This document shows positions 4,951 through 62,855 of a stretch of DNA of 64,000 bases, piece by piece. Made by a program: the position numbers and the translations under genes. The notes under the pieces are model-generated. The model worked only from the letters and a program-made list of their open reading frames with translations, was not told where the DNA came from and searched no databases. Location of the stretch: positions 28,519,231-28,583,230 of the forward strand of contig NC_083435.1 in the NCBI RefSeq assembly GCF_020745735.1. Direction: 5' to 3'. The DNA comes from Hemiscyllium ocellatum. Lineage: Eukaryota. The first letter of the stretch is position 1, and every line of letters starts with the position of its first letter.

Positions 4951-6089
4951 AGCCAGACTCCCTGTTCCAGACCTGTGCTAGGGGAGGGCCTCTTTTCATG
5001 GCTACCACTTTCCCAGTGTGATCCTTGAAGATTGACATCATTAGACATGCCTTTTAATTGAAAACAAAGGTTATTCCAACAATGAGAAAAAGCTGAGATT
5101 TATACATCACCTTTTACAGTCTCGAGGTGGTTTGTAATTCAGGAGGGAAGCTGGAACAGGTGGTGTTCCCAAGTATCTGCTGTCCTTGTCGTTCTAGATG
5201 AGGGGGGAGAATGGGGTGTTTAGGAAATGCTACCCCATCAGCCTTAGCTAGTTGCTACAGTAAAACATGTGAGTAATACACCAGAGCCACAGTCTACCAT
5301 TGGTGGAGCTGATGGGTGGAATGTTGATCACAAGCATTGCTTTCCAATGAAAAGATACATCATCATTGTCTGAAAGTATGGAACCTTCTTTCTTTAGAGC
5401 TGGGGACCACTTTTTGTGTTTCGTTCTTTGATTGAATTCAGTCCTCACCTCACTCAATCACCATTCCCTACAGGTCAATCATTTCAATTCTGTTAGAATC
5501 CCTTTCTTATTTTTCTGCGGGAGTGTTATTCTCCAGCAGATTTGACAAAAGTGAGTCCATTACCGGAGATAAACCACAAAGGTTGAAAGTCAAACCAGCA
5601 TTGTGTGCGGTGATTTGATGAATACCATACTGAAATGATCTTTCTCAGGCGGGCCAGTGGTGACTAATAGAAAACACTGGCAGTTTATGAGCACAATACA
5701 AGTATGTCAGATTACTCTCTGTCCACATATAACTGAGAAACCTTTCCAATGTTAGGAAAAATGGACCCTGTTATGATTTGAGACTATGACAGACATGTTG
5801 CACAAACTGTGTGACCAGGTGGGAGACTCAGTGTAGATGCTCCAAGTTAAACTGATTGGAATTTGCAAGTGATTTTCAGCTTCACTTCACTTGTCGTTCC
5901 ATCTGAATTGCTCCTTCTTTACAGAAATTGTAGCTGTAAATATAATTACAGTCAAACCTGCTTTATCTTGTGGTTTAAGACAAAACTGTGAACTGAAGAG
6001 AAAGTGAGGACTGCAGATGCTGGAGATCAGAGCTGAAAATGAGTTGCTGGAAAAGCACAGCAGGTCAGGCAACATCCAAGGAGCACGAG

Positions 6090-6125
6090 AATCGACGTTT
6101 CGGGCATGAGTCCTTCTTCAGGAAT
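6090..6125 (-). ncRNA. Minimal type I hammerhead ribozyme motif (partly decayed)
   Basis: AUUC CUGAAGA A GGAC UCAU GCCC GAAAC GUC GAUU; one A-C mismatch in stem II. Confidence 0.6.
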
Positions 6126-7305
6126 GAGGAAAGTGTATCCAGCAGGCTAAGATAAAAGGTAGGGAGGAGGGACTTGGGGGAGAGGCTTTGGAAATGCGAT
6201 AGGTGGAAGGATGTCAAGGTGAGGGTGATAAGTCAGAATGGCGGTGGGGGCGGAGAGGTCAGGAAGAAGATTACAGGTTAGAAAGGCAGTGCTGAGTTCG
6301 AGGGATTTGAGTGAGACAAGGTGGGGAAGGGAAGTGAGGAAACTGGAGAAATCTGAGTTCATCCCTTGTGGTTAGAGGATTCCTCGGCGGAAGATGAGGC
6401 GCTCTTCCTCCAGCCGTCGTGTTGCTATGGTCTGGCGATGGAGGAGTCCAAGGACCTGCATGTCCTTGGTGGAGTGGGAGGGGGAGTTGAAGTGTTGAGC
6501 CACGGGTTGGTTAAGTTGGTTGGTTCGGGTGTCCCAGAGGTGTTCTCTGAAACATCCGCAAGTAGGCGGCCTGACTCCCCAATATAGAGGAGGCCACATC
6601 AGGTTCAGCGGATGCAGTAAATGATGTATGTGGAGGTGCAGGTGAATTTGTGGTGGATATGGAAGAATCCCTTGGGGCCTTGGAGGGAAGTAAGGGTGGA
6701 GGTGTGGGCGCAAGTTTTGCAATTCTTGCGGTTGCAGGGGAAGGTGCCAGGAGAGGAGCTTGGGTTAGTGGGGAGTGTGGACCCCCTCTTACTTCCCTCC
6801 AAGGCCCCAAGGGATCCTTCCATATCTGTCACTTGCTGCACCCGATATGGCCTCCTCTACGTTGGGGAGACAGGCCGCCTACCTGCGGAACATTTCAGAG
6901 AACATCTCTAGGACACCCGGAGCAACCAACCTAACCACCCCGTGGCTCAACACTTCAACTCCCCTTCCCACTCCACCAAGGATATGCAGGTCCTTGGACT
7001 CCTCCATCGCCAGACCATAGCAACACGATGGCTGGAGGAAGAGCGCCTAGAAACCCTCCAACCACAAGGTATGAATTCAGATTTCTCCTTTTTCCTCATT
7101 TCCCCACCCCCCACCTTGTCTCAGTCAAATCCCTCGAACTCAGCACCGCCTTCCTAACCTGCAATCTTCTTCCTGACCTCTCCGCCCCCACCCTACTCCG
7201 GCCTATCACCCTCACCTTGACCTCCTTCCACCTCTCGCATTTCCAATGCCCGTCCAAGTCCCTCCTCCCTACCTTTTATCTTAGCCTGCTGGACACACTT
7301 TCCTC

Positions 7306-7341
7306 ATTCCTGAAGAACGGCTCATGCCCGAAATGTCGATT
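7306..7341 (+). ncRNA. Minimal hammerhead ribozyme motif (decayed)
   Basis: AUUC CUGAAGA ACGGC UCAU GCCC GAAAU GUC GAUU; CpG decay in the ACGU palindrome. Confidence 0.45.
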
Positions 7342-8539
7342 CTCTTGCTCCTTGGATGCTGCCTGACCTGCTGTGCTTTTCCAGCAACACATTTTCAAAA
7401 CTGTGAATTGAGCATGGAGCTAGGTGCCTGGAGTATCCTGGACAGTAGTATTCGTACATGTATGGTATGTAGAATGTACCAAATAGCACCATGGGGTGTT
7501 CCTTTACCACAAGGAATGCAGCATTTTAAGAGAATAGCTCACCACTACATTCTCCAGAACAATTAGGAATAGACAACAAAGGCTAGCATTTACAGCAATA
7601 CCCAGATCCCCAAAAACAAAAGGATTTAAAATTGTGATCAGTCTCCATCAACGAACTCTAACTAATTCCGATATGTAGTGATGAGCTTTTCAAATCACTC
7701 ATACACATCATTTCGCCAATGACTCAGATACTAGAGTCTGATCTGTAATTATCTGGGAGATGGCATTCTAAATTTACATCTGAATCCACACTAAATAGCT
7801 TCCACCATCTGTCTGGTAATCTTGTCCCATAGATAGTCGACTCATTTAGGGAAATGTTGGATTCCTAGCTTAGTTTTGTATAAGAGCCCCCAGTCCCTTC
7901 AAGTTCAGGTTGTGTACTCTGGTAGGACTGCCCTGAGCGGCTGAGATGGTTGGTCATGGCCTGTGTTACCAAGGTCCCCTTAGAATATCTGAAACAGCAT
8001 GTGGCCAAATCACAGCCCAGAACATGCACAAGGTCGTGGATGCTCAATGTGAACAGCACTACGATCAGACTCAATCAAATCAAAGCTACAGGATAATGCA
8101 AGCAAAGTGCCATCTGAGCAGGAGGCAAAATGACAGAGAATCACTGGAACAGGGAGAGAGACATTTGTAAATGTTCATCCGGTCCCCAGACTGAACGACT
8201 AGAAAATGTTCCTGCTCTGCAAATGCCTAAACAATCAGTTCAAGGATGTGAAAAATGAAATGATTGGAGATTCAACTGGAAACAATTCCACTTGATTAAA
8301 ATTTAAGCAGGACACATCAGGACCAAGTTATAAATTATGAATCGACTGCGTGTTGAAAGCCGGGTATGTTTGACCTTCAGATCAGCGCAAAACCATCTGA
8401 GTATTTCTCAAACACCTTCCACTGAAGCTTGCGATTGCATTTCGACATTCACCAGTTTCTGACCCGATGAGGAATTCAGGCCCTGGAATCACAACTGGGA
8501 GAGTTTTGGAGAAACAATTAGTGTGGTCAGCTGAAGGCT

Positions 8540-8830
8540 GCATTTCTGTAGCACCACCTCGGGACATCCTCCAAAGCAGCGTTCTGTCTCGAAATGTGGT
8601 CACTGCCTAGATGTACCAAACATAGCAGTCAACTTGTGTACAGCCAGATCCCACAAAGAGAAAACAACCAGGCAATCTATTTTCTAGTGGATGCTTGGAG
8701 AGATAAATATTGAGATGATCATTGGGATTGAAGAGGAGAGTGGAATTTTGTACGGTCAGCAGACAGGATCTTGGCTTAACGTCCTATCTCAACAATGTAA
8801 CCTCTAACTATGCAGCACTCCTCCGGACTC
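8540..8830 (-). mobile_element. DeuSINE/SacSINE1-like SINE
   Basis: Tail plus Deu-domain-like text (cagatcccacaaa...gataaatattg) and tgcagcactcc segment; family name from recall only. Confidence 0.55.
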
Positions 8831-9019
8831 GTAGAAGTGAGTCAATGTGGTTTGGAGCACTCTGCCTGGAAGGGTGTGGGAGCAGTTTCAATGGTAACTT
8901 GCAAAATGGAATAGGCCAAACATTTGAAAAGCGAAATAATCAGCGATAAGTAGGAGATTGGGTGCAGAGGAATTGCATTTTTAGTACAGACACAATAGAC
9001 TGAATGGCCTCCATTTGTT

Positions 9020-9330
9020 CTAGAATCCCTACAGCACAGAAAGAGTTGATTCAACCTGTCGAGTCTGTACTGACCCTTCGAAGAGCACTCTGACCTGATC
9101 CTTGCTTTTTCCATGGCTAATCCACCTAATTTGAACATATGGGGCAATTTAGCATAGCCAACCTGCCTAACAAGCAGAACTCTGGGCTGTGGGAGGAAAC
9201 TAGAGCACCCAGAAAACACCCACACACACATGGGGAGAATGTGCAAGGTCCACACACAGTCACCTGAAGGACGAATTGAACCCGGGTCTGTGGCACTGTG
9301 AGGCAGCCGTGCTAACCACTGTGCTGCCCA
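9020..9330 (-). mobile_element. HE1-like V-SINE
   Basis: Head gggcagcacagtggttagcacggctgcctcacagtgcc on minus, V-domain, tail. Confidence 0.9.
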
Positions 9331-9984
9331 ATCATATGGTACACCCTATAATGAATGAATGTATGCTCCACTTCCATGACACTTTCGAACCTGTTAAATG
9401 CCTCAGTTCCTCCCGAGATTTATCTCTCTCATTCCAGTTCCATTGAACCAAAGGACAACCTGCTCCTTGCAAGCACCCAGTGCCTTCCCCTTCCTCAAGC
9501 AGCCAACTTTGATTCCCTCGTGGTGAGGTAATCGCATAACAAAAGCTGTTCAGTGTAAGGTGAAGAGTCTCAATGAAGATACTCAGCTGGTGAAAATAGA
9601 ATCTCTTTCAAATTTTAATGGAAGCAGAATGACTGGAGGGAATTGGACTTTGTGTGAAAGTGATTGCTAGGGACTCCCCACACACTGTGATAACTAACAG
9701 CAGTGAGACTCACAAGGATAGACTTAAGGCACTGGATGGGGGCTGTGACTTTCAGACAAGGACAGCTCAAATATCAGGGGAAACATCGATGAGAGTGACT
9801 TAGTCTTACAGCCTTCAGACTTTAAGATTCCAAGTGCAGAATCCTTTCCTTCCTGTTTTGTCTCTTCTCTTTTCAAACACACTCCAGCTGAATACTATGT
9901 GCCTCATATTCCCATTAACGAAATACCCAAATCTGACAGCTCTGTGATAAAACAATGCAGTTTAGCAACATTGCCAAAACGCAT

Positions 9985-10013
9985 GGGGAGAGAGTGAGTG
10001 AGAGAGAAAGACC

Positions 10014-10053
<40 letters not shown>

Positions 10054-10062
10054 GAGAGAGAG
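9985..10062. repeat. (GA)n/(GAGACA)n microsatellite
   Basis: Direct reading. Confidence 0.95.
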
Positions 10063-10779
10063 AACTCTTTCTTTTCATCTAAACAAACCAGTCAAACATT
10101 GCCACTGGCAGTATCTACATTGGATCAGGGAATGGTACAGCACAGGAAGTAGCTATTCATTCCATTGTACCTGGACTAGCCCTGTGGCAGAACTGTCTGT
10201 TATTCCACTTACTCTGTCAGAATTCCTGCTGCTGAGATGAAATGACAAATGAAGGGAATGGGATCATTGCAGGTGTTAATTATGAAGGTAACAGAATCAG
10301 AGACTAGGTCCTTCTGTAAATAACAAACACAATTCACCTCCACAAAACAGCACAGTCCCCACTTGAACCACAATGTGGACAAAATAGAAAGAGGAAGCTA
10401 TACTAATTTGTACATCAGCTTGTTGCACAAGTCTTGTTGTGCAAAATAATGACTAGAGAAATGCAGTCTCTCTCACATGGATAGGCAATGAAAAATGAGA
10501 CTCCCCTCTTGCTCAGTCCCAGATTCCTCAGCAATACGTCTCTCACTGATCTCCTGAATCAACAGGTATGGTATTCCAAGCATCACTTCACCAGTTCCCA
10601 GTCAGTGTGCGTTTGACACATAGAATTGGATCTTTCAATCAGCTGCCCCAGTCTAGTTTTGAAATTCTGGACAGAGGGAGAGAGAGAAATCTTGGCACTA
10701 ACCCCGCTTCCAGGTTGAACTGAGCAGCTCAAATCTTTGAGAAATCAAGTATCAGAGTCTCAGGAAAAAAAGACAACCT

Positions 10780-11505
10780 GGTATTGGGAGTTGAGCAAAG
10801 CTTCCTCCTCCTCCCCTCACATCGATGGGAGTTCCTTAATGAGTGCTAATTGGGGATGGACAAAGCCTGCACTGAACTGGTGGAGTTCCATGAGATGGAG
10901 CCACAGGAGTTTTAGTTAAGGATGCTGAAGCAGCTAGTTGGTGAAGTAGGGGATAGTCCATTCTTCCATAGTTATGGGTGCTGAAGCAAAAGTTGGTGAA
11001 ATGAGGGATAGTCCATTCTTCCATAGTTATGGGTGCTGAAGCAGCTAGTTGGTGAAGTGAGGGACAGTTGGCAGCTCTGCCTCCAATTGCAAGGACACAA
11101 AACTCCGGAATTTCTTCGCTTCACCCTTCCACCTCCCAACTCTTAGTTGCAGGGTGAGGTAGGGTTCAGCAGCATCAGTGAGGTGGGCCAGTGGCGAAGA
11201 GATGGCACCTGAAGTGGGGCAACTCCTCCATTGCAGAGTCTGGTGTGGGCAGCAGCAAGACGGTGGTCTCCCTTTCTGTTCCTGGAGGTGAGGTGCCGGC
11301 GTGCACTGGGTTGGAAAGACTCCTATTCTGAACTTACTATTTATTCATTTTTCTAATTAATTCCTATGACCTGTAATACTGGACTTATTAATTCTACTTT
11401 TCTACTTTTGTGTGTAAGATGGCAACGTAATGTGGCAACTTGCAAACTTGTTACTGTACTTATCTGTGTGCGTGTGGCAAGAAAGCTAACTCAATTCATT
11501 TCTCT
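10780..11505 (+). mobile_element. Unclassified interspersed repeat; second copy at about 53650-54245
   Basis: Shared 3' segment gtggcaacttgcaaacttgttactgtactta versus gtggtgacttgtaaacttttcactgtactca, each preceded by a T-rich tract and ending in a short ctaa(c/t)tc-type tail. Confidence 0.45.
10923..11066. repeat. 55-56 bp tandem repeat, about 2.5 copies
   Basis: Unit tgctgaagcagctagttggtgaagtaggggatagtccattcttccatagttatggg starts at 10923, 10979 and 11034. Confidence 0.9.
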
Positions 11506-11689
11506 CTCCTCCTTTGATAAAACAAAAAACCTTGCCCAGCCTTTTGGCCATCTGCCATAACATCTCCTGGCATGGCTATATCTCAAATTGTAATTGTCAA
11601 GCACCTTGGGATATTTTAGTGTCTTCAAGGTGCTAAATCAATGCAAATTATTCTGTATTTAACAAAGTCATGGCATTGTACACTCAGAA

Positions 11690-12140
11690 GTCCTGTCATC
11701 CATCAGGTTTACACTGACAATAAACTACCTTAAATCTACACTTGTCCCACTTTACAGCACATGGCCCACAGCCTTCAAGTGCTCATCCAAGTACTTTTAA
11801 AAGGTAGTGGGGTTTCCCCCTCTATTACCCACCGAGGCATTGTATTCCCCATTCTCACTATCCACTGGGTAAAACATTACTTTCCTCAAATCCCCTTTCA
11901 CCTTAAAATTAAATGCTCTTATTATTGACCCTTCAGCTAAGGGGAGAGTTGTTTTCTATTCACACTGTCCATGTCCATCATAATCTTATACACCTTTATC
12001 AGGTCTCCTCTCAGCCGTCTCTGCTCTAAAGAAAACAACCAGAGTTCATCCAGTCTCTCTTCATGACTAAACTGCTTCATCCCAGGCAACATTCTGGTGA
12101 ATCACCTCTGCACCCCCTAGAGTGCAACTTGTTGCAGAGG
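11690..12140 (-). mobile_element. CR1 LINE 3' fragment
   Basis: Reverse complement of the CR1 ORF2 end (aggtctcctctcagccgtctctgctctaaagaaaacaacc) and tail (gtcccactttacagcacatggccc). Confidence 0.8.
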
Positions 12141-13004
12141 GGTAAAATAATTGTGGCTGAAATCTCTCCTTCCTTCTGCAAACTCGAAGCCTTTGATGCT
12201 ATCCAGAAGAAGATTCTTAACCCAGGAATGAATAGAAATGCTTAGGTTATTTTGATTTAGAGAACTAATTTGCCGATATGAAGGGAGGTTTCTCATCTTC
12301 TGGAGGGAGAGGGGGCTCAGTCCATCAGTCACACTCTCAAACAGGATACGGTCTCCAGGAGGAATTTACTGGGATGGAAACTTTCCAGACCTGGGCAGCC
12401 TCTGTGGAGAAAGGAACAAAGAATTTTCCAGAAACAAATTCGGAGAATGCTAGACAAATTCAACAAGTCTGGGAGCACCTGTAGAGCGAGAGGCAGAATT
12501 AACATTTAACATCGGGTATGTCTGTTCATCTGCAGCACTTTACTTTTACATCGACATTTTTTTAGGTATTTTCCAGCTCTCGCCAGAGTTTTACCTCATT
12601 CACTGTCTCAATGGCTCTAGAATAAATGACTATTCTAGACCTAATAAGGAGGACTCTTCAGCTCATCTCTCTGGGACACAAGAAAAATGTCGAGGATGCA
12701 GGAAGTGAGAATTGAAATCACTGGGAGACAGACAGAAGTGAAGGAAGGGAAAGGGGAAGGATAGTAATGATGAAGGAGGGGCAGAATGACGACATGATGC
12801 TGGTGAGGGGAGAAGAGGGAAGGCAGGGCTGGGAGGGGGAAGAACATGACCGGGGTCGAAACAGGGGAGAAGAGAATTAATAGATATTTGAGAAGGCAGG
12901 AGGAAAGGGCGAGTGTGGTTGAAAGATAGATGAGGGAGTGAGGAAGTAGGAAACAGACAGAGTGGAACAGAGGGACTCAGGTAGTGGAGTGGGGAAGGGG
13001 AAAT

Positions 13005-13240
13005 GAGAGCAGGGAATGGGGAAAGGAAAATCAGAGCAGGGAATAGGGAAGGGGTGGTATCAGAGGAGGGAGTGAGAAGGGAGTAATTAATGTACGGAGT
13101 GAGAAAAGGGGTAATTAGAGGAAGGAGTAGGGGAGGAGGTAATTAGAGCAGGAACTGGGAAAGCGAGTAGTCAGAGGAGGGAATGGGAAAGGGTTAATCA
13201 GAGAAGGGAGTGGGGAATGGGGTATTAGAGGACGGGGTGG
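13005..13240. repeat. About 29-bp purine-rich degenerate minisatellite
   Basis: Recurring (t/c)agag(c/g)aggga(a/g)tggggaa(a/g)gg units inside a polypurine tract spanning about 12740-13290. Confidence 0.7.
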
Positions 13241-13469
13241 ATTGTGGTAGAACTGAGTAGGAAGAGAGACGCAGAATAAGACGTTATTGAGGGGCGTGTT
13301 GATTCCAACTGCTGAACTGTGATACATACGGGGATAAGATTTCAGATTATCTTGTTAAACAGCAGTTTAATTATCCCCCTGAGATATTAATGAACAGACT
13401 ACACTAGCTGTGAGCTAGGATATGCAAATGTTTCTACAGAAGAGGCAAAGGACAGAGTGTGGTGAAGGG

Positions 13470-13680
13470 AATGGTGTGTGGTTTGTCTGTCTGTATGTGT
13501 GTTCATTTGTGTATCTGTGAGTCTGTGTGTGTGTATCTATGGGTGTGTGTGTGTGGGTGCATGTGTATATGGATGCATGTCTGTGTGTGTGTGCGTGTGT
13601 GGGGTGTGCTGGTATGTGCGTCTGTGTCTGCTTCTATGTGTGTGGTATGTGTCTGTGTGTGTTGGTGGGACGGTGGGGGA
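13470..13680. repeat. Degenerate (TG)n low-complexity tract
   Basis: Direct reading; explains four spurious Cys/Val or His/Thr ORFs. Confidence 0.9.
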
Positions 13681-15719: not shown

Positions 15720-16095
15720 AATTACTACAGAGTGGAAGCAGGCCATTTGGCCCTTTAAGTCTAGACCACCTGTCCAAATACAATCCAACCAAGACCTAAC
15801 CATGCCCCCCCACCCGTCCAATCCTTGTAACCCATATTTCCAATGGATAGTTCTCCTAGCCCGCACAACTCTGGACAGTATAGGCAATCTACCATGTCCA
15901 ATCCACTTAACCTGCACATCTTTGGACTGTGGAAAGAAAATGAAGCTACCCACACAGACACAGGGATAATGTACAAATTCCACAGAGACAGTCAGCTGAA
16001 GCTGGAATTGAACCCAGGTCACTGGTGCTGTGAGAAAGTGAGGACTGCAAATGCTGGAGTTCATGCTGTGAGGCAACAGTACTGACCACTGAGCC
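15720..16095 (-). mobile_element. HE1-like V-SINE containing a 29-bp PLE-tip insertion
   Basis: SINE head/V-domain/tail; insert 16035-16063 flanked by tgctgtgag at 16026-16034 and 16064-16072. Confidence 0.85.
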
Positions 16096-29764: not shown

Positions 29765-31470
29765 CTAAGAGTTATAGAGTCACAGAGATGTACAACATGG
29801 AAACAGACCCTTCAGTCCAACTCATCCATGCTGACCAGATACCCCAACCCAATCTAGTCCCACCTGCCAGCACCCGGCCCATATCCGTCCAAACCCTTCC
29901 TATTCATATACCCATCCAGATGTCTTTTAAATGTTGCAATTGTACTAGCATCCACCACTTCCTCTGTCAGCTCATTTCACACATGTACCTCCCTCTGAGT
30001 GAAAACCTTGCCCCTTAGGTCTCTTTTATATCTTTCCTCTCTCACCCTAAACCTATGCCCTCTAGACTCCCCCACTTTGTCTATTTATCCTATCCACGCC
30101 CCTCATGATTTATCAACCTCTATAAGGTCACCCCTCAGCCCCCGAAGTTCCAGGGAAAACAGCCCTAGCCTATTCAACCTCTTCCTATAGCTCAAATCCT
30201 CCAACCCAGGCAACGTCCTTGTAAATCTTTTCTGGACCTTTTCAATTTTCACAACATCGTTCTGATGGGAAGGAGACCAGAAGTGCACAAAATATTCCAA
30301 CAGGGGCCTAGCTAATGTTCTGTACAGCCGCATTTCCTCCTCTGTAATATGGACATTTTTTCAAGATGTCACCACCTATTTTCCTATATTCAATATCTTC
30401 CACGTCCTTTTCCACAGTAAATACTGATGCAAAATACTCATTTGGTATCTGCCACATTTCCTGCGGCACCACATAAAGGCTGCCTCGCTAATCTTTGAGG
30501 GCCCTATTCTCTCCCTAGTTACCCTTTTGTCCTTAATGTATTTGTAAAAGCCCTTTGGACTCTCCTTTACTCTATTTGCCAAAGTTATCACATGTCCCCT
30601 TTATGCCCTCGTGATTTCTCTCTTAAGTATACTCCTATTGCCTTTATACTCTTCTAAGGATTCACTCGGTCTATCCGATCTATACCTGACATATGCTTCT
30701 TTCTTGTTCTTAACCAAAACCTCAATTTCTTTACTCATCCAACATTCCCTACACTTACCAGCCTCTCCTTTCACCCTGGAAAAAGTGAGGACTGCAGATG
30801 CTGGAGTACCAGAGTTGAAAAATGTGGTGCTGGAAAAACACAGCAGGCGAGGCAGCATCCGAGGAGCAAGAGAATCGACGTTTCAGGCATAAGCCCTTCT
30901 TCTGCCTGAAATGTCGATTCTCCTACTCCTTGGATGCTGCCTGGCCTGCTGTGTTTTTCCAGCACCACATTTTTCAACTCTTTCCTTTCACCCTAACAGG
31001 AATATACATTTTCTTGACACTTGTTATCTCATTTCTGAATACTACCCATTTTCTGGCCATCCCTTTATCTGCAAACATCTGCCCCCTATGGGCCTTTGAA
31101 AGTTCTTGCCTAATACTTGCCCAGTATATAGATGTGCCTACTTGAGAAGGTGCAAAACTTGATCTTCTCTTGGAAAATAAGGTAGGGCAGGTGACTGAGG
31201 TGTCAATGGGGGAGCACTTTGGGGCTAATGACTATAATTCTATCAGTTTTAAATTAGTGACAGAAAAGGATAGACCAGATCTAAAAGTTAAAGTTCTAAA
31301 TTAGAGGTAGGCCAATTTTGATGGTATTAGACAAGAACTTTCAAAAGCTGATTGGGCACAGATGTTCGCAGGTAAAGGGACAGCAGGAAAATGGGAAGCC
31401 TTCAGAAATGATATAACAAGAGTCCAGAGAAAGTATATTCCTGGTAAGTATAGGGAATGCTGGATAACTG
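29765..31470 (-). mobile_element. Rearranged CR1 LINE (minus 29765-31095, plus-strand endonuclease piece 31100-31470)
   Basis: RLYRTLARPLLEYF, NRVKESPKGFYKYIKDKRVTRE and plus-strand QYIDVPT..AKLDLLLGNK frames. Confidence 0.85.
30778..30982. mobile_element. PLE terminal-repeat fold-back (205 bp)
   Basis: 79-bp arms 30811-30889 / 30903-30981 with 5 mismatches, 13-nt loop; 12-bp TSD tcctttcaccct at 30766-30777 and 30983-30994. Confidence 0.9.
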
Positions 31471-34958: not shown

Positions 34959-35869
34959 TCAGTTGTTTTGCTTGTTCTTTAATTCAATAATTGACCTAAT
35001 TGGGTATTTCACTGCAATCAGCAGCTGCTCTCTGAACTTGGATTGAGTCACCCCATAAATAAATGCATTTGTGCAGCAATTTAAACTCAGCACCATAACA
35101 GCAACTTCTGCAAAGATATATAAAGAATCTTTGTAGTATGTGGGTTTAATTCCAGTAATGGTGTAATATAAGAAGTCTATAACATATAAAAGCCAAAGTA
35201 ATATGAAACTTCTGGATATGGTGAAGAGGAAAATCGCAGACTTTCTTCTGCTCTCCATCTCTGGATCACTGCAATTCTCTCTTTTCCTCTGACTTCTCAG
35301 CCCTTTGCGAACCCGACTGGTCACCAAAATGTGTCTGACTGTCAGAGCATTCAGCAATAGAATCAAAGCATATGGGAGCAATGGAGTTAAAATCTTATCG
35401 AACCAGTCAAACCCCAACCATACGGGGTCAGTATGATAGCTTGCCTTCACAATACAGTACAAGGGAACATTGTCAATTATCACTGCAGGTTCATAGGTAA
35501 AGTAGAATGGAATGTCTTTGAAACAAAGTATAATGCAGGTTGTTGTTAGTACTATAGTTGCGAGCCTCTTGGTGCAATATTTTCTTTTCAGATTCTGGCA
35601 ACATATCGTCACAAATCGATCAAAGGAGAATGTGACAGTGAACCAGACAGAACATTCTGTTGCTGCATAAAACAGGACAATAATAACACTGCAGACAGGG
35701 GTGACGTTCAGGAAAGATTCTGGGAAATAGTAAGAATTAATCTGCCACAGTACAACTCCAGTAATAATGACCAGTAGATCTGCCACTACCATGGCCACAA
35801 GGTAGAGAATGGTACAGGTGGAGAGGCCGCATTTCCCCTGGGACAGGATCACAATTGCCACTATGTTAA
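34959..35869 (-). CDS. Exon 2 (TM1 end to C-terminus) of a GPR139/GPR142-like orphan class A GPCR
   Basis: Open frame with YLVAMVVADLLV (TM2), PVC (TM3 Cys), SFDRFVTIC (DRY-like), PLLPYALILLLN (TM5), MESRRKS, NCCTNAFIYGVTQSKFR (TM7/H8); acceptor ttcatttccag at 35870, phase 1. Confidence 0.92.
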
Positions 35870-43100: not shown

Positions 43101-43313
43101 ACTTCTATATTCTCCCTTCAGAATCTCATCCTTTTCCCTTCCTATATAATTAGTTCCAATGTGTCCAATGACCTCCTGCTGGTCCCTCTCCCCTTTTGAG
43201 AACACTCTGCTCCTTCTCTGACAAATCCTAAATCCCAGCAGCAGTGAAGCAGCATACCATTCTGATATTTTGCAGCTGGTCGCAGAAACGCCTGTCTGTG
43301 CCTCTGATTAGAA

Positions 43314-43509
43314 TGTGTTGCTGGAAAAGCGCAGCAGGTCAGGCAGCATCCAAGGAACAGGAAATTCGACGTTTCGGGCATAAGCCCTTCATCAGGCTTA
43401 TGCCCGAAACGTTGAATTTCCTGTTCCTTGGATGTTGCCTGACCTGCTGCGCTTTTCCAGCAACACATTTTCAGCTCTGATCTCCAGCATCTGCAGACCT
43501 CACTTTCTC
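43314..43509. mobile_element. PLE terminal-repeat fold-back (196 bp) in the GPCR intron
   Basis: 75-bp arms 43312-43386 / 43395-43469 with 2 mismatches, loop cttcatca; 18-bp TSD ctgtgcctctgattagaa at 43296-43313 and 43510-43527. Confidence 0.93.
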
Positions 43510-43957
43510 CTGTGCCTCTGATTAGAAAATTCCCCAACACAATTGAGTGTTTGGAACCCAATATACCCCTCATTACATTACAATCAGTCTCAATATCAGA
43601 AAGCTGGCTGTTAGTGCTACATTCCCCTGACAGTCCATCACCTGCTACATTTTCCAAAACAACATACTTGTTTGAAATGGGGATAGCCATAGAAGACTGC
43701 TGCACTAACTGACTACCCTTACTAGCTTTCCTGGAGTTTAATTTTTTCATTTAGTTTTATCAATTTACACTTCTTGTAAACATTGGTTGAGTTTTCAATT
43801 TATACTGTCTACCTGTTCTTGCTGATAATTTTTCTTTGGCCAAGTGTCTATTCTTGAACTTGGCAAAACTTCCGAAATGTAGTACATTACCGGAATTATT
43901 TAGTTTAACATTGTCTCTACTTCCCCAGTTATGCAATTAGTTGTATTACCAGCCCCA

Positions 43958-44134
43958 TAGAGATTATAAGGTCTGCAGATGCTGAAAAGTCAGAGTCGAT
44001 AAAATGGGGTGCTGTAAGATGCATAGCAGGTCAAACAGCATCAGAAGGGCAAGAGTCGATGTTTTATGCAGGACCTTCATCAGGAATAAAATGTCCTGCC
44101 CAAAATGTTAACTCTTCTGCTCTTCTGATGCCAA
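43958..44134. mobile_element. Older PLE terminal fold-back
   Basis: gcatcagaagggcaagagtcgatgtttt..gcaggac with inverted gtcctgcccaaaatgttaactcttctgctcttctgatgc; possible TSD taccagcc(c/t)ca. Confidence 0.6.
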
Positions 44135-45887: not shown

Positions 45888-45951
45888 CAGGAACACCGAT
45901 GACAGCAAGAATTGTATAGTATATATTCTTGATACGGTGAAATGTCTCCAT
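45888..45951 (-). CDS. Exon 1 of the GPR139-like GPCR (METFHRIKNIYYTILAVIGVP)
   Basis: 64 nt = 21 codons + 1, donor G|gtaag at 45887; splices in phase to exon 2 giving ...YYTILAVIGVPVNIVAIVILS, a complete TM1. Confidence 0.85.
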
Positions 45952-51978: not shown

Positions 51979-52088
51979 TGCCCGAAACGTCGACTCTCCT
52001 GTTCCTTGGGATTCGGCCTGACCTGTTGTGTTTTTTCCAGTTCCGCATTTTTTTCAATTCTGACTCTCCAGCATCTGCAGTCCTCACT
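51979..52088 (+). mobile_element. PLE terminal fragment beginning inside hammerhead stem II
   Basis: tgcccgaaacgtcgactctcctgttcc...ccagcatctgcagtcctcact. Confidence 0.8.
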
Positions 52089-53164
52089 ATCTCCTCGGTT
52101 GTGAGGTGGTTAGGCCATGGGTAGCATGCCTCCACCATTAAATTAAGTCATGTCTGATAATTTCCCATCTTCAGATCCCATCGATGTTCCAACAAAAATC
52201 CAATTCATTTTTGAAAAACACTTGAAATGAGAACTCCCCCAACCTCCCCCAACCCAGCCCCCACCACTGCCTCGACGTTGCCAACTTTTTGAGTTCGGGA
52301 TTTCCACTATTGCTCAATGTGAGGAGAAACCTGCTGACTTCACTTCTGAATGGCCTGTTATTTTATATTGATGTCAAATTGTTTTGTGTTGATTCTGTCA
52401 ATGACTTGTAACCCTTTAAACGCTTATTAAAATACAAAGTGGAAGGATTGGAAACAGGAGTAGGCCATCCGGCCTTTTGAGACTGCTCCAACATTCAACA
52501 TGATCATAGCTGAACATCCAACTCTGTACCCTGTTCCCGTTATTGTCCCCACACCCTTCACAATCAATTAGCTGTGAATGTTCTGCACTCAAGGAATGAG
52601 AAGCTTAAATATAAACAAAAAGATGCTGGAGAAACTCAACAGGTCTGCGGAGAGAGATTAATATTTTGATTCCAATGTGGCACGTCTTCAGAACTGTCAG
52701 CATTCCTGGTTTTAACCATTCATTGTGAGAATATGTTTCCACAAACACCACTGGTTCATTTAACAATCACCTTGAACTGAAATCTGCAATTTCTAAACTA
52801 TTCACCAAAGGAACTGGGTTCCTCCCCCTCTTATCTTGGCACTGTGTGATATTGAACACTGCTATCAAATCTCCTTGAAGTCTTTTCTTCTCCAAAGGAA
52901 ACAGCCCAATCTGTGCACATCGTTGTCATTCCTCAACCCTGGAATAATTTTAGTTTATCTTTTCAGTAAGCTCTCAAAGAGTTTCCTGCATTCCCTACAT
53001 AGGTGCACCCAGAATTGAAAACAATACTCTAGTTCAGCATGTAATGGTTCAGCATGAATTCACTATTCCTTCCTTCGGATGTATGCACCTCTGGGAAGGC
53101 TAGCTTTTATTTCCCAACCCAAATTCCCTACTGGCTTGCCAGGTCATCTCGAGGGGAGTTAAGA

Positions 53165-54410: not shown

Positions 54411-54468
54411 AGATTAGGGTGGTGCTGGAAAAGCACAGCAGTTTAGGCAGCATTCGAGGAGCAGTAAT
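54411..54468 (-). mobile_element. 58-bp PLE terminal insertion
   Basis: ggtggtgctggaaaagcacagcag..ggcagcattcgaggagcag flanked by 14-bp TSD gagttatgaagtct (54397-54410, 54469-54482). Confidence 0.85.
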
Positions 54469-56075: not shown

Positions 56076-57077
56076 GTGAGCTCATACACCTCAGTTGTTA
56101 ACATCTTTTGAGAGAAGCTGGGAGTAGAAAGGGATCTGGATAAGGTCATGGGAAGGAAGGGGTTCCATCTCCTTAGAGCAGGGTCTAGCAAACAAAGTGT
56201 ACATTAGACCTCAAAATATATTTGAAAAAAATGTTGTGCCCACCTGTCCTGATGTTCCAAGGTTCAGGGGAACACAGATTTCAGGGTTTGACCAAAAAAT
56301 GCAGGAAAACCCAGGAAGGGAACCATGAGAGGATATTAAAGTGGAAAACCAGGGTATTCTGAGACTGTTTGAAGAGATAGATAGCACTAGTGTAGAGAAT
56401 AGAACTTTAAGACATGAAGGTTGAAGTAAGGGAGAAAATAATGAACTCTAAATCAAGGATATGAAAGATGTGGAGTACAGTAAATTAGACTTCAGAGCAA
56501 CAGGCACACATTGACTTGTGGAAGTATGATGCTGTGACAATAGCAGACACCTGGCTGAAGGGAATGTGTGTTAACTACCTCTGGGTATAAGGTGTTTGGT
56601 AAAGATAGGAAAGGAGGAAACAGAAGAGAAATGGCATTATTGGTCATGAAGAGCATTGCATTGGTGGAATAAGGGCAATTGCATAAATAGGGTTGTGGAC
56701 AGGACTCTGAACTAAATGGGGCATGAGGAGGGTTCAGTTATAGGGGAAATTAGAAAACCCGAATTAAAGGAGGAGGTAAGCGTGCAGAACTCAGGGGAAG
56801 TTATTAAAATCTCCAGTATACACAGAAATACAGCAGTGTATATGGAAAGGGTTAGCAATGAAACTTCAAGCACACTGGACAAACGAATGACTGTGAGAAA
56901 AGGGACCGTTAATACTGGACTTAAGCTGTTATGTCTGAATGCATGCAGGATGAGATATAAAGTAAATAAGCTTGGTGTGCAGATCGAAATTGGCAGGTAT
57001 GATGTGGACATCATGGATGCTGCAAATGTGTTGCTGGTCAAAGCACAGCAGGTTAGGCAGCATCTCAGGAATAGAGA

Positions 57078-57113
57078 ATTCGACGTTTCGAGCATAAGCC
57101 CTTCATCAGGAAT
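57078..57113 (-). ncRNA. Minimal type I hammerhead ribozyme
   Basis: AUUC CUGAUGA A GGGC UUAU GCUC GAAAC GUC GAAU: stem I AUUC/GAAU, stem II GGGC/GCUC, core boxes intact, GUC cleavage triplet, palindromic ACGU in place of helix III. Confidence 0.8.
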
Positions 57114-57246
57114 AAGAGAGAGAGAGCCAAGCAGGCTGAGATAAAAGGTAGGGAGGAGGGACTAGGGGGAGGGGCGATGGAGGTGGGATAGGTGGAAGGA
57201 GGTCAAGGTGAGGGTGATAGGCCGGAGTGGGGTGGGGGCGGAGAGG

Positions 57247-59946
57247 TCAGGAAGAGGATTGCAGGTTGGGAGGGCGGTGCTGAGTTGAGGGAACCGACTG
57301 AGACAAGGTGGGGGGAGGGGAAATGAGGAAGCTGGAGAAATCTGAATTCATACCTTGTGGTTGGAGGGTTCCCAGGCGGAAGATGAGGCGCTCCTCCTCC
57401 AGCCGTCGTGTAGTTGTGTTCTGCCGGTGGAGGAGTCCAAGGACCTGCATGTCCTCGGTGGAGTGGGAGGGGGAGTTAAAGTGTTGAGCCACGGGGTGAT
57501 TGGGTTGGTTGGTTCGGGCGGCCCAGAGGTGTTCTCTGAAGCGTTCCGCAAGTAAGCGGCCTGTCTCACCAATATAGAGGAGGCCACATCGGGTGCAGCG
57601 GATGCAATAGATGATGTGTGTGGAGGTACAGGTGAACTTGTGGCGGATATGGAAGGATCCCTTGGGGCCTTGGAGGGAAGTGAGTGTGGAGGTGTGGGCG
57701 CAAGTTTTACATTTCCTGCGGTTGCAGGGGAAGGTGCCGGGGGTGGAGGTTGGGTTGGTGGGGGGTGTGGATCTGACAAGGGAGTCACGAAGGGAGTGGT
57801 CCTTGCGGAACGCTGATAGGGGAGGGGAGGGAAATATATCCTTGGTGGTGGGGTCCGTTTGGAGGTGGCAGAAATGGCGGCGGATAATACGTTGTATGCG
57901 GAGGTTGGTGGGGTGGTAGGTGAGAACCAGTGGGGTTCTGTCTTGGTGGCAGTTAGAGGAGCGGGACTCAAGGGCGGAGGAGCGGGAAGTGGAGGAGATG
58001 CGGTGGAGGGCATCGTCGATCACGTCTGGGGGGAATCTGCGGTCCTTGAAGAAGGAGGCCATCTGGGCTGTGCGGTGTTGGAATTGGTCCTCCTGGGAGC
58101 AGATGCGGCGGAGACGAAGGAATTGGGAATATGGGATGGCGTTTTTACAGCGGGCAGGGTGGGAGGAGGTGTAGTCCAGGTAGCTGTGGGAGTCAGTCGG
58201 TTTATAATAGATGTCTGTGTTGAGTCGGTCGCCCGAGATAGAAATGGAAAGGTCTAGGAAGGGGAGGGAGGAGTCTGAGACAGTCCAGGTGAATTTCAGG
58301 TCGGGATGGAAGGTGTTAGTAAAGTTGATGAACTGTTCAACCTCCTCGTGGGAGCACGAGGCAGCGCCGATACAGTCATCGATGTAGCGGAGGAAAAGGT
58401 GGGGGGTGGTGCCAGTGTAGTTGCGGAAGATGGACTGTTCCACATATCCTACGAAGAGGCAGGCATAGCTGGGGCCCATGCGGGTGCCCATGGCAACTCC
58501 TTTAGTTTGGAGGAAGTGGGAGGATTGAAAAGAGAAGTTATTCAGGGTGAGGACCAGTTCAGTCAGTCGAAGGAGGGTGTCAGTGGAAGGGTACTGGTTG
58601 GTGCGGCGGGAAAGGAAGAAGCGGAGGGCTTTGAGTCCTTCGTGATGGGGGATGGAGGTGTACAGGGACTGGATGTCCATAGTGAAAATAAGGCGTTGGG
58701 GACCGGGGAAGCGAAAATCCTGGAGGAGGTGGAGGGCGTGGGTGGTGTCCCGAACGTAGGTGGGGAGTTCTTGGACTAAAGGGGACAGGACCGTGTCGAG
58801 GTATTGGGAGATGAGTTCGGTGGGGCAGGAGCAGGCTGAGACAATGGGTCGGCCGGGGCAGGCAGGTTTGTGGATTTTGGGCAGGAGGTAGAAACGGGCG
58901 GTGCGGGGTTGTGGGACTATGAGGTTGGAGGCGGTGGATGGGAGATCCCCTGAGGTGATGAGGTCCTGGATGGTCTGGGAGATGATAGTTTGGTGGTGGG
59001 AGGTGGGGTCGTGGTCAAGGGGGCGATAAGAGGAGGCGTCCGTGAGCTGGCGTTTGGCTTCAGCGGTGTACAGGTCAGTGCGCCAAACTACTACCGCGCC
59101 TCCCTTGTCTGCGGGTTTGATGGTGAGGTTGGGATTGGAGCGGAGGGAGTGGAGGGCTGCACGTTCTGAGGGTGAGAGGTTGGAGTGGGTGAGAGGGGTG
59201 GACAGGTTGAGTCGGTTGATGTCACGGCGGCAGTTGGCTATAAAGAGGTCGAGGGCGGGTAGGAGGCCAGCACGGGGTGTCCAGGTGGATGGGGTGTGTT
59301 GGAGGCGGGAGAAGGGGTCGTCAGAGGGTGGGCGGGAGTCTTGGTTGTGAAAGTAGGCACAGAGGCGAAGGCGGTGGAAGAATTGTTCAATATCTCGCCG
59401 CGTGTTGAACTCATTAATCCGAGGGCGTAGGGGAACGAAGGTGAGGCCCCTGCTGAGGACTGATCTTTCATCCTCAGAGAGGGGGAGATCTGGAGGGATG
59501 GTGAAAATCCGGCAAGGCTGGGAGCTAGGACCTGGTGTGGGACTGGAGCTGGAGCTGGAGCTGGGGGCGGGGTTAGGGGCGGGGACAGAGATCGAAGTAG
59601 GGGCGGAGTTAGACGTGGTGACGTTGCTCGACGTGGGGGTGGGGTCATGCGTCGTGACGGAAATAAGCGTGGGGGCGGGGTTACGTGAAGCGACGGGAGA
59701 TGGCGTGGGGGCGGGGTTATGGGCGGGGTTATGCGTAGTGACGAAAGACGGCGTGGGGGCGGGAAAACCTGAGGATTTGTGCTCCTGCAGGTTAGTGATG
59801 TCAGTGGGGGCGGAAGTGGCTGCGTCGACGGCAACCGGAGGGGCGGAAATGGTTGCGGCGACGGAGGAGTGGTGGTCATTCCCGGTGGCCGCGTGGGTCG
59901 CGGGTCCGTCGGCGATCGTGGAAGCGGTTGTGTGTGTGGTGGTCAC
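57247..59946 (-). CDS. PLE reverse transcriptase - GIY-YIG endonuclease polyprotein (899 aa from GTG; true start lies outside this truncated copy)
   Basis: IKPADKGGAVVVW, FYLLPKIHK..GRPIVS, FTMDIQSLYTSIP, GVAMGTRMGPSYA, FLRYIDD, LPFLDL, CNRRKCKTC linker, IIYCIRCTRCGLLYIGETGR..RFREH..VAQHF. Confidence 0.95.
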   Translation of the reverse strand: MTTTHTTASTIADGPATHAATGNDHHSSVAATISAPPVAVDAATSAPTDITNLQEHKSSGFPAPTPSFVTTHNPAHNPAPTPSPVASRNPAPTLISVTTHDPTPTSSNVTTSNSAPTSISVPAPNPAPSSSSSSSPTPGPSSQPCRIFTIPPDLPLSEDERSVLSRGLTFVPLRPRINEFNTRRDIEQFFHRLRLCAYFHNQDSRPPSDDPFSRLQHTPSTWTPRAGLLPALDLFIANCRRDINRLNLSTPLTHSNLSPSERAALHSLRSNPNLTIKPADKGGAVVVWRTDLYTAEAKRQLTDASSYRPLDHDPTSHHQTIISQTIQDLITSGDLPSTASNLIVPQPRTARFYLLPKIHKPACPGRPIVSACSCPTELISQYLDTVLSPLVQELPTYVRDTTHALHLLQDFRFPGPQRLIFTMDIQSLYTSIPHHEGLKALRFFLSRRTNQYPSTDTLLRLTELVLTLNNFSFQSSHFLQTKGVAMGTRMGPSYACLFVGYVEQSIFRNYTGTTPHLFLRYIDDCIGAASCSHEEVEQFINFTNTFHPDLKFTWTVSDSSLPFLDLSISISGDRLNTDIYYKPTDSHSYLDYTSSHPARCKNAIPYSQFLRLRRICSQEDQFQHRTAQMASFFKDRRFPPDVIDDALHRISSTSRSSALESRSSNCHQDRTPLVLTYHPTNLRIQRIIRRHFCHLQTDPTTKDIFPSPPLSAFRKDHSLRDSLVRSTPPTNPTSTPGTFPCNRRKCKTCAHTSTLTSLQGPKGSFHIRHKFTCTSTHIIYCIRCTRCGLLYIGETGRLLAERFREHLWAARTNQPNHPVAQHFNSPSHSTEDMQVLGLLHRQNTTTRRLEEERLIFRLGTLQPQGMNSDFSSFLISPPPTLSQSVPSTQHRPPNLQSSS

Positions 59947-62855
59947 CGGGGCAGTTGTTGGGGCGGCGATCGCAGGGGCTCCGAGGTCGGTGGGGGCGGA
60001 AGTGACGTCACGGTCGGCGGCGGCCTGGTTACAAGGGGATTAGGATTGGGAGCTGAATATTCAAGGATTGAAAAGGTAGGTAGTTGGGCAGAGGTGGTGG
60101 GTTGCCTTATTAGTAAAAACTAAATTAAATCAATAGTAAGAAATGAAGTAGGGGCAGATGGCATAGAATCTGTGTGTGTAGAATTGAAGAATTGCAAAGG
60201 TAAAAAAATCAAACCATAGTTGGAGTTACATACAGGCTGCAAAAGTAGTCAGGAGCTAGGGCACAAGATGCACCAGGAGATTGAAAAGATGTGTAGGAAG
60301 GGAAAGTTACATCGATCATGGGGGATTTCAATATGCAGATGGACTGGGAAAATCAGGCTGGAGGTAGATTGCAAGAAAGGGAATTTGCGGAATGTTGACT
60401 AGATGAATTTTTGGAGCAGTTTCTGGTGGAACCCACTAGGGAACAGGCAATATTGGATTTATTGTTGTGCAATTGATAGGGGAGCTTAAAGTGAAGTAAC
60501 CAAAAAGAGGCAGTGATCATAACATGATTGAATTTACTCTGTAATTTGAGAGGCAGAAGATACAATCAGAGGTAACGGTATTAGAGCTAAATAAAGGCAT
60601 CTACAGAGGCATGAGGCATGAGGAAGGAGCTGTGTAGAATTGACTGTAAGAGGAGTCTAGCAGGCAAAACAGAGGAACAGCGATGGCAGGATTTTCTGGG
60701 ACTGATTCAGGAGACACAGCAGATTTTGATCCCAGGAAAAAGAATCATGGTACAGGGAGGTTAAGGCAACCATGGCTGACTGGGGAAGTCAGAGGTAGTG
60801 TAAAAGCAGAAGAAAGAGCATATAATGTGGCGAAAGGAAGTGGGAAACTAGAGGATTAGGAACCTAACAAAGACCCACAGTGGGCAACAAAAAAAGCAAT
60901 AAGGAGGGAGAAGATTAAATATGAGGGTAAGCTAGCCAGTAATATAAAGAAAGACTGGTAGAGTTTCTTTAGACATATTAAGGGCAAAAGAGTATCAAAA
61001 ATGGACATTTGGCCTCTGGAAAATGACACTAGAGATAGTAGTGGTGAACAAGGAAATGGCTGAGGAACTGAATAATTACTTAATGTCAGTCTTCACGGTG
61101 GAAGACATGAGTAATGCCCCTATCATTCAAGTGCGTGAGGGGGCAGAGCTAAGTGTGGTGACCATCACCAAGGAGAAGGTGCTCGAGAAACTGAATGGCC
61201 TAAAGGTGAATAAATCACCTGGACCAGATGGATTACACCGCAGAGGTACAAAGGAGATAGCGAAGGGATAGTGGATTCATTAGTGGTGAACTTTCAGGAA
61301 TCGCTAGAATCAGGAAGGGTACCAGAGAACTGTTTAAAATGGAGCAAGGCAAAAGATGAAAAATTTCAGACCGATTAGCCTAACCTTGATTGGGGATAAG
61401 ATCCTGGAATCGATTGTGAAGGATGAGATTTCGGAATACTTGGAGGTTTACAGTAAAATAGATAATGTCAGAATGGTTTCATCAAGGGGATGTCATGTCT
61501 GACAAATCTGCTGGAACCCATTGACAAGGTCATGAGCAGATTAGACAAAGAGGTGCCAATGGATGTTATCTATCTGGACATCAAGAAGACCTTTGACAAG
61601 TTGCTGCACAGGAGGCTACTGAGTAAGATAAGGGCCCATGGTGTCAGAGGCAAGGTGCTAGCATGGATAGAAGCTTGGCTACTGGCAGAAAGCAGAGAGT
61701 GGGAATAAAAGGATCTTTTCAGGATAGCAGCCAGTGACAAGTAGTGTTCCACAAGTGTCATTGTTGGGACCACAACTTTTCCCTTTATACATTCACAATC
61801 CAGACAAAGGAACTGAGGGCATCCTGGCTAAATTTGCAGATGATACAAAGATAGGTAGAGGGATAGGTAGCATTGAGGAGGCAGGGAAGCTGCAGAAGGA
61901 TTTGGACAGGTTAAGAGAGTGGCAAAGAAGTAACAGATGGAGTACAATGTGGGAAAATGTGAGATCATGCACTTTGAGTAAGAAAAATAGAGGTATGGGC
62001 TATTTTCTAAATGGACGGAAAGTTCAGAAGAATGAAGTGCAAAGAGACTTGGGAGTTCTAGTCCTGGATTCTCTCAAGGTAAACTTGCAGATTGAGTCAG
62101 TTGTTCAGAAAGCCAATGCAATGATGGCATTTATTTTGAGGGGACTTGAATACAAAAGCAAGGGTGTACTTCTGAGGCTCTATGAGGCTCTGGTCAGATC
62201 ACACTTGGAGTATTGTGTGCAGTTTTGGGCCCCATATCTCAGAAAGGATGTACTGGCCCTGGAGCACGTTCAGAGGAGATTCACAAGAATGGTCTCAGGA
62301 ATGAACAGCTTAACATATGAGGAACATTTGAGGACTTTGCCTTTAAAATTGATAGAATTTAGAAGGAGGAGAGGGGATCTAATTCAAATATACAAAATAC
62401 TGAATGGCCTAGGCAGAGTAAATGTTGGGAAGGTATTTCCACTGGTCAGAGAGACTAGGACCTGAGGGCACAGCTTAGAGTAAAGGAAAGACCTTCTAGA
62501 ATGGAGATAAGGAGAAACATCTTCAGCCAGAGAGTGGTAAATTTATGGAATTCGTTGCCACAGAAGGCTGTGGAACCTAGGTCATTGAGTGTTTTTGAGA
62601 CTGAGTTAAGTAGGTTCTCGAGTATCAGGAGGATCAATAGTTATGGGGAGAAAGTGAGAAAATGGGGTTGAGAAACTTATCAGCCGTGATTGAATGGTGG
62701 AGCAGACTTGATGGGCTGAATGGCTTACTTTCTGCTCCTATGTCTTATGGTCACAAGGGACATCCCAGAAGGTTCAAACATAGTATCAATCTGACCTGAT
62801 TTAAGAAATAAAAAGAGTGCAATTAGTTTGCACATCTATTGGTCACTAGTGAGTG

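Follow-up and report, generated by a model that had tools for sequence, protein, structure and literature searches.

A hairpin insert in the predicted intron of a receptor gene

The window, that is, the whole stretch of 64,000 nucleotides of Hemiscyllium ocellatum DNA analysed here, carries on its minus strand a two-exon model of a GPR139-like receptor of the rhodopsin family, in which a first exon of 64 nt and the second exon join in frame at GT/AG sites to encode 325 amino acids (Table 1). Judging from its sequence, the receptor is probably a lineage-specific paralogue, only distantly similar to GPR139. A near-perfect hairpin lies inside the predicted 10-kb intron and its minus strand is the gene strand, supporting, for the intron as predicted, the placement given in a preliminary description of this DNA. 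If the gene is transcribed, a duplex of 75 bp would form part of its intron, and many other introns would carry the like; such dsRNA may be an ADAR or Dicer substrate, as put forward in the preliminary description. No function is indicated for this hairpin copy, and the insert is predicted to be selectively near-neutral. A>G differences in the contigs of four runs were considered as possible signs of RNA editing, but they are equally present in both of the locus-containing runs, whose kind is unrecorded, and were not taken as editing.

The two arms of the insert (43312-43386 and 43395-43469) are 75 nt each, are spaced by 8 nt and are 97% complementary. A direct comparison confirmed that they differ at only two positions, both C/T transitions, one at 43368/43413, a CpG that includes the cut-site base of the ribozyme, and the other at 43346/43435. 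Identical direct repeats of 18 nt bracket the hairpin; the TSD, described earlier as a perfect 18 bp, is properly 14-18 nt, because two bases at each inner repeat edge also fit the element, and TSDs of sibling hairpin copies are mostly 11-18 nt. The insertion can be called recent in a relative sense only, as two differences in 75 positions are compatible with a divergence of 0.3-9.6% (95% range). The insert is asymmetric: a tail of ~35-40 nt is present on the right arm only, which extends to +125, while the left arm extends to +83 (element coordinates, in which 0 is the first C of CUGAUGA). Loose ends of public contigs accumulate at 43475/43476 and 43510/43511, and the left junction is spanned without differences by one contig of run X14, which may be the assembly's own source.

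Table 1. Features of the receptor locus, the hairpin insert and related elements in the window
Feature	Position	Strand	Remarks
Exon 1 of GPR139-like GPCR, predicted	45888..45951	-	ATG, GT donor, in-frame join
Exon 2 of GPCR, predicted	34959..35869	-	7tm_1; best solved-structure match GPR139, E 1.5e-07
Left TSD	43296..43313	+	18-nt repeat; last 2 nt also match element end
Tail-less pLTR piece, element -1 to +83, including loop	43312..43396	- (sense)	
Minimal type I hammerhead without 5' strand of stem I	43364..43395	-	GUC cut site 43370-43368; sequestration predicted
Spacer UGAUGAAG, 8 nt, element +1 to +8	43387..43394	-	
GG/CC microhomology, 2 nt, uniting both pieces	43395..43396	.	28-nt junction found 394 times in genome
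Tail-bearing pLTR piece, element +9 to +125, without CUGAUGA	43395..43511	+ (sense)	cut-site C->T at 43413
One-sided tail, ~+90 to +125	43476..43511	+	family arm ends; contig loose ends
Right TSD	43510..43527	+	first 2 nt also match element end
Second hairpin stub, diverged variant	30766..30994	-	12-nt TSD; inner ends near +2 and +15; downstream of gene
Penelope-like element, related subfamily, 5'-truncated	57020..60039	-	RT + GIY-YIG frame, then pLTR with intact hammerhead motif

The hairpin contains an incomplete hammerhead ribozyme

On the minus strand, the hairpin reads in order CUGAUGA AGGGCUUAUGCCC GAAAC GUC GAAU, and the core boxes CUGANGA, GAAA and UH of a hammerhead ribozyme are all present together with stem II. 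AAGC precedes CUGAUGA and faces GAAU, while intact family copies have AUUC/GAAU. Since AAGC is unable to pair with GAAU, stem I is gone in the insert, in agreement with the earlier claim that its 5' strand had been replaced while GAAAC GUC GAAU was kept; stem I, which closes the motif in minimal type I hammerheads, is thus lacking. The 8-nt spacing UGAUGAAG had been described as a loop equal to the catalytic box. As a refinement, the box CUGAUGA contributes its first C to the pairing of the arm, and closure by a U-G pair leaves a loop of 6 nt.

The minus-strand hairpin folds with a computed energy of -158.8 kcal/mol (z = -20.6), and none of 200 shuffled sequences folded equally well. Within this fold, the computed pairing probability of stem II is only ~5e-12 and forcing the core open would cost 27.9 kcal/mol. 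These folding models agree with the proposed sequestration of the core, and the ribozyme in the hairpin is predicted to be catalytically inactive. The ribozyme region folded as a monomer was unremarkable (z = -1.4), and no Rfam match at the gathering score was found in the 64-kb window.

Relationship of the insert to Penelope-like retroelements

The arms share 82-88% identity with the repeat behind a frame of 930 amino acids at 57-60 kb, and pLTRs of the same subfamily as the insert sit behind homologous frames in all eight long loci. The frame matches RVT_1 above the cut-off (E 2.7e-08) and GIY-YIG just below the Pfam cut-off (E 4.5e-04). The insert itself shows an inverted 5'-truncated pLTR beside a direct pLTR, a one-sided tail and a TSD, the features of Penelope-type insertions. 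By its sequence, then, the insert is a stub of the pseudo-LTR (pLTR) of a Penelope-like retroelement, comprising two end pieces placed head to head between TSDs. The clade name Penelope/Poseidon is applied to the element by resemblance only.

Other members of the family were seen in the window. The frame at 57247-60039 has 930 open codons and a Pro/Thr/Ser-rich N-terminal region, and is accompanied by neither an upstream pLTR nor a tail; no intact full-length copy with a 5' pLTR and ORF was found among the eight long stretches examined. The hairpin at 30.8 kb, which had been cited as a second case in the same ribozyme, is real, but it belongs to a more diverged variant and is situated beyond the intron. 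Two longer opposed pieces of the same element family occupy 5998-7397, with the inversion near 6781-6835, far upstream of the ribozyme. Older or partial related pLTRs are found at 43969-44070, 51979-52095, 54419-54467, 15875-16063 and 824-1314, the first of which is inverted relative to the tail of the insert and ~450 nt away from it.

Ribozyme-centred hairpins are abundant in the genome

When the insert was used as the query in a DNA search, the best 40 candidates all matched ~200 nt at 95-100% identity, and the exact junction was present in 29 of the 30 of these that were fetched, with different TSDs. The exact 28-nt junction was counted 394 times in the genome. Genome pattern searches returned 3,528 hairpins with a centre of 5-35 nt at the ribozyme and, with more subfamilies covered, a further 1,721 in which both arms reach -4; the two patterns do not overlap in length, giving a sum of at least 5,249.

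A 34-nt word of the tail occurs 24,200 times in the genome. Of the first 100 places listed for this word, those within the leading 10.7 Mb of contig 1 were fetched (30 loci and 40 regions), which gave a sample chosen by the tail alone; 70 distinct copies were obtained after five duplicates had been dropped. Thirty-one of them are ribozyme-centred hairpins, defined by both inner ends falling between -15 and +40, 13 are non-inverted copies starting there, 23 are longer and three are shorter. The hairpin share of 44% (31/70; 95% range 33-56%) corresponds to ~8,000-13,500 hairpins genome-wide, as extrapolated from a local sample. Throughout, samples came from the start of the first two contigs and hand counts refer to the first 100 matches listed. 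The locus studied here is an ordinary one, and nothing distinguishes it among the thousands. At G000:C3:109225359-109484928, seven exact junctions on the same strand lie within 260 kb, probably as a tandem segmental duplication.

Arm ends cluster at the 5' edge of the ribozyme

Inverted-junction control patterns placed ~100 and 243 nt upstream gave only 18 and 31 matches genome-wide, as compared with the 3,528 and 1,721 hairpins at the ribozyme. Such control windows exist only in longer copies, which make up about one third of the sampled ones. This restriction is too small to explain a gap of more than 100-fold, and the clustering is therefore real. The inversion points are thus far from uniformly distributed along the terminal repeat, as the preliminary description had anticipated from two cases. 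A second inversion hotspot near -243, hinted at by three of the 70 copies, was rejected, with only 31 loci there against 18 at the neutral window.

Of the 31 sampled hairpins, 26 have the inner end of the arm that reaches farther between -14 and -1, and 10 of the 13 non-inverted copies start between -10 and 0. Because non-inverted copies begin in the same zone, the position of the end is independent of inversion. The arms run through the cut site and typically stop ~4 nt ahead of CUGAUGA, and in many cases one additional C follows. In the insert's subfamily, position -4 lies in TCATTCC, which we take to fit the initiator consensus. The ends are spread from -14 to 0, and, in the hairpins with both arms reaching -4, many arms extend a few templated bases beyond it, which counts against a sharp start. 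At the cut site itself, no direct arm among the 70 sampled copies ends at +28, the nearest ends being two at +30. Genome-wide, C or T follows +28 at 559 places; a hand count of 100 of these among the matches listed gave ~40 true ends, 52 point changes, seven from one tandem array and one unclear case. C or T follows -4 at 13,165 places, in a search that covered a wider set of subfamilies than the +28 search, so that the ratio is rough.

The bases added at these ends were counted by hand. At 50 loci among the matches listed at which both arms reach -4, the next base was C in 19 arms and T in four (p = 0.003 against 1:1). Both arms showed C at eight loci, whereas T on both arms did not occur. 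Twelve junctions of a single base were not counted, being ambiguous, and G and A are compatible with the template. In a second listing of 100 matches with C or T after -4, 46 C were counted against 27 T (p = 3e-4 against base composition), after removal of nine C and 18 T that join to the start of the other arm. A first version of the test was dominated by a subfamily with a templated A and by tandem arrays. When 30 loci were examined by their TSDs, the TSD was clear in few non-inverted copies; a G lies outside the TSD in three of these (L147, L156 and L167) and an A in one (L165). For L1, an untemplated 5' G has been interpreted as a copy of the cap (PMC9341517). Addition by terminal transferase gives the same C, so the extra base points to run-off more firmly than to capping. 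From the ends seen in the DNA, we infer a transcript start near -4.

Taken together, these data make it likely that the centring of the hairpins on the start of the ribozyme reflects where the element RNA begins, rather than cutting by the ribozyme or a block to copying. The loop would then contain the catalytic box because the box comes first in the RNA, as a by-product of where the cDNAs end.

The same clusters could be read differently, namely that the folded ribozyme stalls or redirects reverse transcription and that cDNAs end in the motif wherever the RNA starts. The clusters do coincide with the motif, -4 being exactly the first base of stem I; 13 of the 31 hairpins have the end of their shorter arm in the stretch across stem II (+2 to +22), and GGGC/GCCC of stem II is kept in at least 69 of 79 motifs while loop II varies. 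However, a reverse transcriptase moves along RNA in the 3'-to-5' direction and would be expected to pause on meeting a helix rather than after unwinding the whole of it, the stems are only 4 bp, and the extra C at the ends fits run-off. Stalling, put forward in the preliminary description, is thus a poor fit to the long arm, which stops past the entire ribozyme, and we consider it unlikely as the general cause, although it may shape where the shorter arm ends.

The junction is formed repeatedly

Forty position-ordered copies of the insert's exact junction were compared arm by arm. At the diagnostic position +70, the arms are identical in 37 of the 37 scored copies, 19 with T/T and 18 with A/A (p = 6e-11), and discordance between arms was found in only 3/38 at +37 and 1/39 at +55. 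The exact-junction copies comprise four arm-matched haplotypes, and the junction geometry of the insert recurs in three loop-II variants, in 12 of 50 hairpins among the matches listed (two of which are one duplicated locus). The tail is on a single arm in these 40 copies, on the arm with the short inner end in 32 and on the arm with the long inner end in eight. Tail-less arms mostly end at +82 to +100 in these copies, and mostly at +86 to +95 when the 70-copy sample is considered as well; tail-bearing arms end at +121 to +127, which places the outer ends of the family near +90 and +125. Matched haplotypes, loop variants and a tail on either arm indicate that the junction is a recurrent product, and the independence of the inversions suggested earlier from two cases is upheld. 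A single founder of the hairpin family had been suggested by 30 query-like loci; as the main cause it was rejected in view of the haplotypes, the loop variants and the tail placement. Shared arm-specific variants, as expected of a founder family, did not stand out, and the tail-less end is variable rather than fixed.

The near-perfect concordance of the arms also fits a copying of one arm from the other. A single cDNA or antisense transcript might prime itself and copy itself, as proposed for palindromic junctions with self-priming on an antisense template (PMC3846280). The arms almost always share their subfamily bases, and a 2-bp snap-back that leaves an 8-nt loop would be one way to draw the junction. 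However, a snap-back cannot add a tail that was absent from the first pass, which argues against self-priming in the 32 of 40 copies with the tail on the would-be second-pass arm, and two fixed outer ends as well as junctions with filler between two full-length arms also speak against it. Self-priming is thus quite unlikely.

Very unlikely is the inheritance of the junction from a few transcribed hairpin donors that are copied as a non-autonomous passenger. It would explain 394 copies of one exact junction, and at two loci (L007 and L018) the junction is followed by an arm continuing into the element body, so that these could be minor donors. Nevertheless, there are at least four haplotypes and three loop variants with matched arms, the tail is on either arm, no arm-specific shared variant stood out, and dozens of other junctions coexist. 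At L007:1460-1912, a hairpin fully tailed on both arms is followed by ~115 nt of element body and then by a pLTR from -4 to +90, all within one TSD, which looks like a captured template jump.

The least probable explanation, that cDNAs stop and invert at an RNA end made by ribozyme cleavage, has in its favour that some arms end at or near +28 (~40 of 100 among the 559 matches), but it is contradicted at this locus by both arms of the insert, which extend 19 and 29 nt beyond the cut site, -4 ends exceed +28 ends many-fold (in searches of differing scope), and cleavage is dispensable for insertion of an anole element in vitro, with no reads ending at the cut site in anole (PMC11167929).

Proposed mechanism of hairpin formation

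We consider it probable that the nicked strands of the target both prime short cDNAs, which reach the RNA's 5' end immediately ahead of the hammerhead core, run off there and are then joined. In this scheme, the element protein would cut both strands and start reverse transcription at two internal sites, by comparison with the anole element in vitro, for which the cutting and extension of both target strands and two internal starts bounding the tail have been described (PMC11167929). One cDNA would start from ~+125 and the other from ~+85 to +90, the latter with a few bases of microhomology to the target. The RNA would begin near -4 as a capped transcript. The antisense cDNA ends may then be joined by 0-4 nt of microhomology or by a template jump, with one arm trimmed or stopped early; in the present insert, -1 would be joined to +9 via GG/CC, and repair would fill in the remaining strands. 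The ribozyme would be a passenger, whose short inverted repeats may supply some of the microhomologies.

No single asymmetric junction is as common as the 2-nt join (12 of 50 among the matches listed), while the adjacent 3-nt register accounts for two of 50; plain annealing does not explain this preference for the 2-nt over the 3-nt register. The 2-nt register may come from a template jump made after pausing beyond stem II, which would be the surviving part of the stalling idea.

As a more tentative extension, which we regard as possible but would not yet bet on, the two products may be strong-stop cDNAs, made on both strands from an internal start to the capped 5' end, whose failed jump to the RNA's 3' end leads to their fusion, so that about four in ten of the family's insertions become hairpins of 75-90 bp. 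If true, this would explain inverted pLTRs and one-sided tails without antisense self-priming and would make the ribozyme the most 5' part of the transcript. It would also mean that ~10,000 ready-made dsRNA hairpins against the element are present in the genome and could feed the silencing of that element. More generally, near-perfect hairpins, which number in the thousands, may supply intronic dsRNA in this lineage on a large scale.

Comparison with known systems

The type of insertion is already known. Endonuclease-bearing Penelope-like elements have been described to leave an inverted 5'-truncated pLTR, a tail of 30-40 nt at one end only, a TSD, a head-to-head junction and a hammerhead in the pLTR (PMC8557442, PMC3846280, PMC2377424), all of which are shared by the insert. 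Different from these published insertions, as far as the available parts of the reports describe them, the whole insert here consists of two pLTR ends of ~200 nt in total with no ORF, a form found in 31 of 70 sampled copies, and the position of the junctions has been mapped to the ribozyme's 5' edge. In the openly available article texts searched, we found no mapping of PLE inversion points to the ribozyme 5' edge and, within the same scope, no description of such hairpins in cartilaginous fish.

The minimal type I hammerheads of metazoan PLEs (PMC4209133) share with the family CUGAUGA, an extra base before stem II, a G-C closing pair, GAAA, a palindromic minimal stem III and GUC, whereas the arms of the insert each hold an incomplete motif that is buried by the hairpin. 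Animal non-LTR retrozymes (10.64898/2026.07.22.740005) are likewise derived from pLTRs, hammerhead-bearing and non-autonomous; they are described as head-to-tail tandem arrays, whereas the insert is a single head-to-head unit and thus falls outside this class. Head-to-tail arrays with a 351-nt period do occur in the genome, at G000:C1:281075-286373 and C1:745161-758525 (part in L179); they contain a pLTR with an intact hammerhead, the tail and ~115 nt of body, are similar to non-LTR retrozymes and might adopt the fold of dimeric ribozymes. A further tandem array, at G000:C4:46549905-46550471, has a 76-nt period and consists of a pLTR piece ending at the ribozyme cut site.

In LINE-1 twin priming (PMC11702581), the second strand also primes a second cDNA, joining involves microhomology or end joining, and the TSD is discrete. 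In contrast to L1 inversions, which join adjacent and nearly non-overlapping RNA segments, both cDNAs here would copy the same 85 nt, giving a hairpin.

The closest parallel to the proposed mechanism is PAc, the Poseidon of Anolis carolinensis (PMC11167929), in which both strands are cut and extended from two RT starts that bound the tail, and for which uncleaved RNA was used. In the part of that report available, the joining of the two extended ends is not resolved, and the ORF of PAc starts within the ribozyme. The origin of tandem and inverted PLE structures is called undefined in PMC8557442. The statistics of the present family are a useful in vivo footprint of this unresolved mechanism, and the family pattern, with thousands of young junctions, outer ends fixed at two places, run-off at the first base of stem I and an additional base resembling a cap copy, yields a precise prediction that can be tested in the existing in vitro system.
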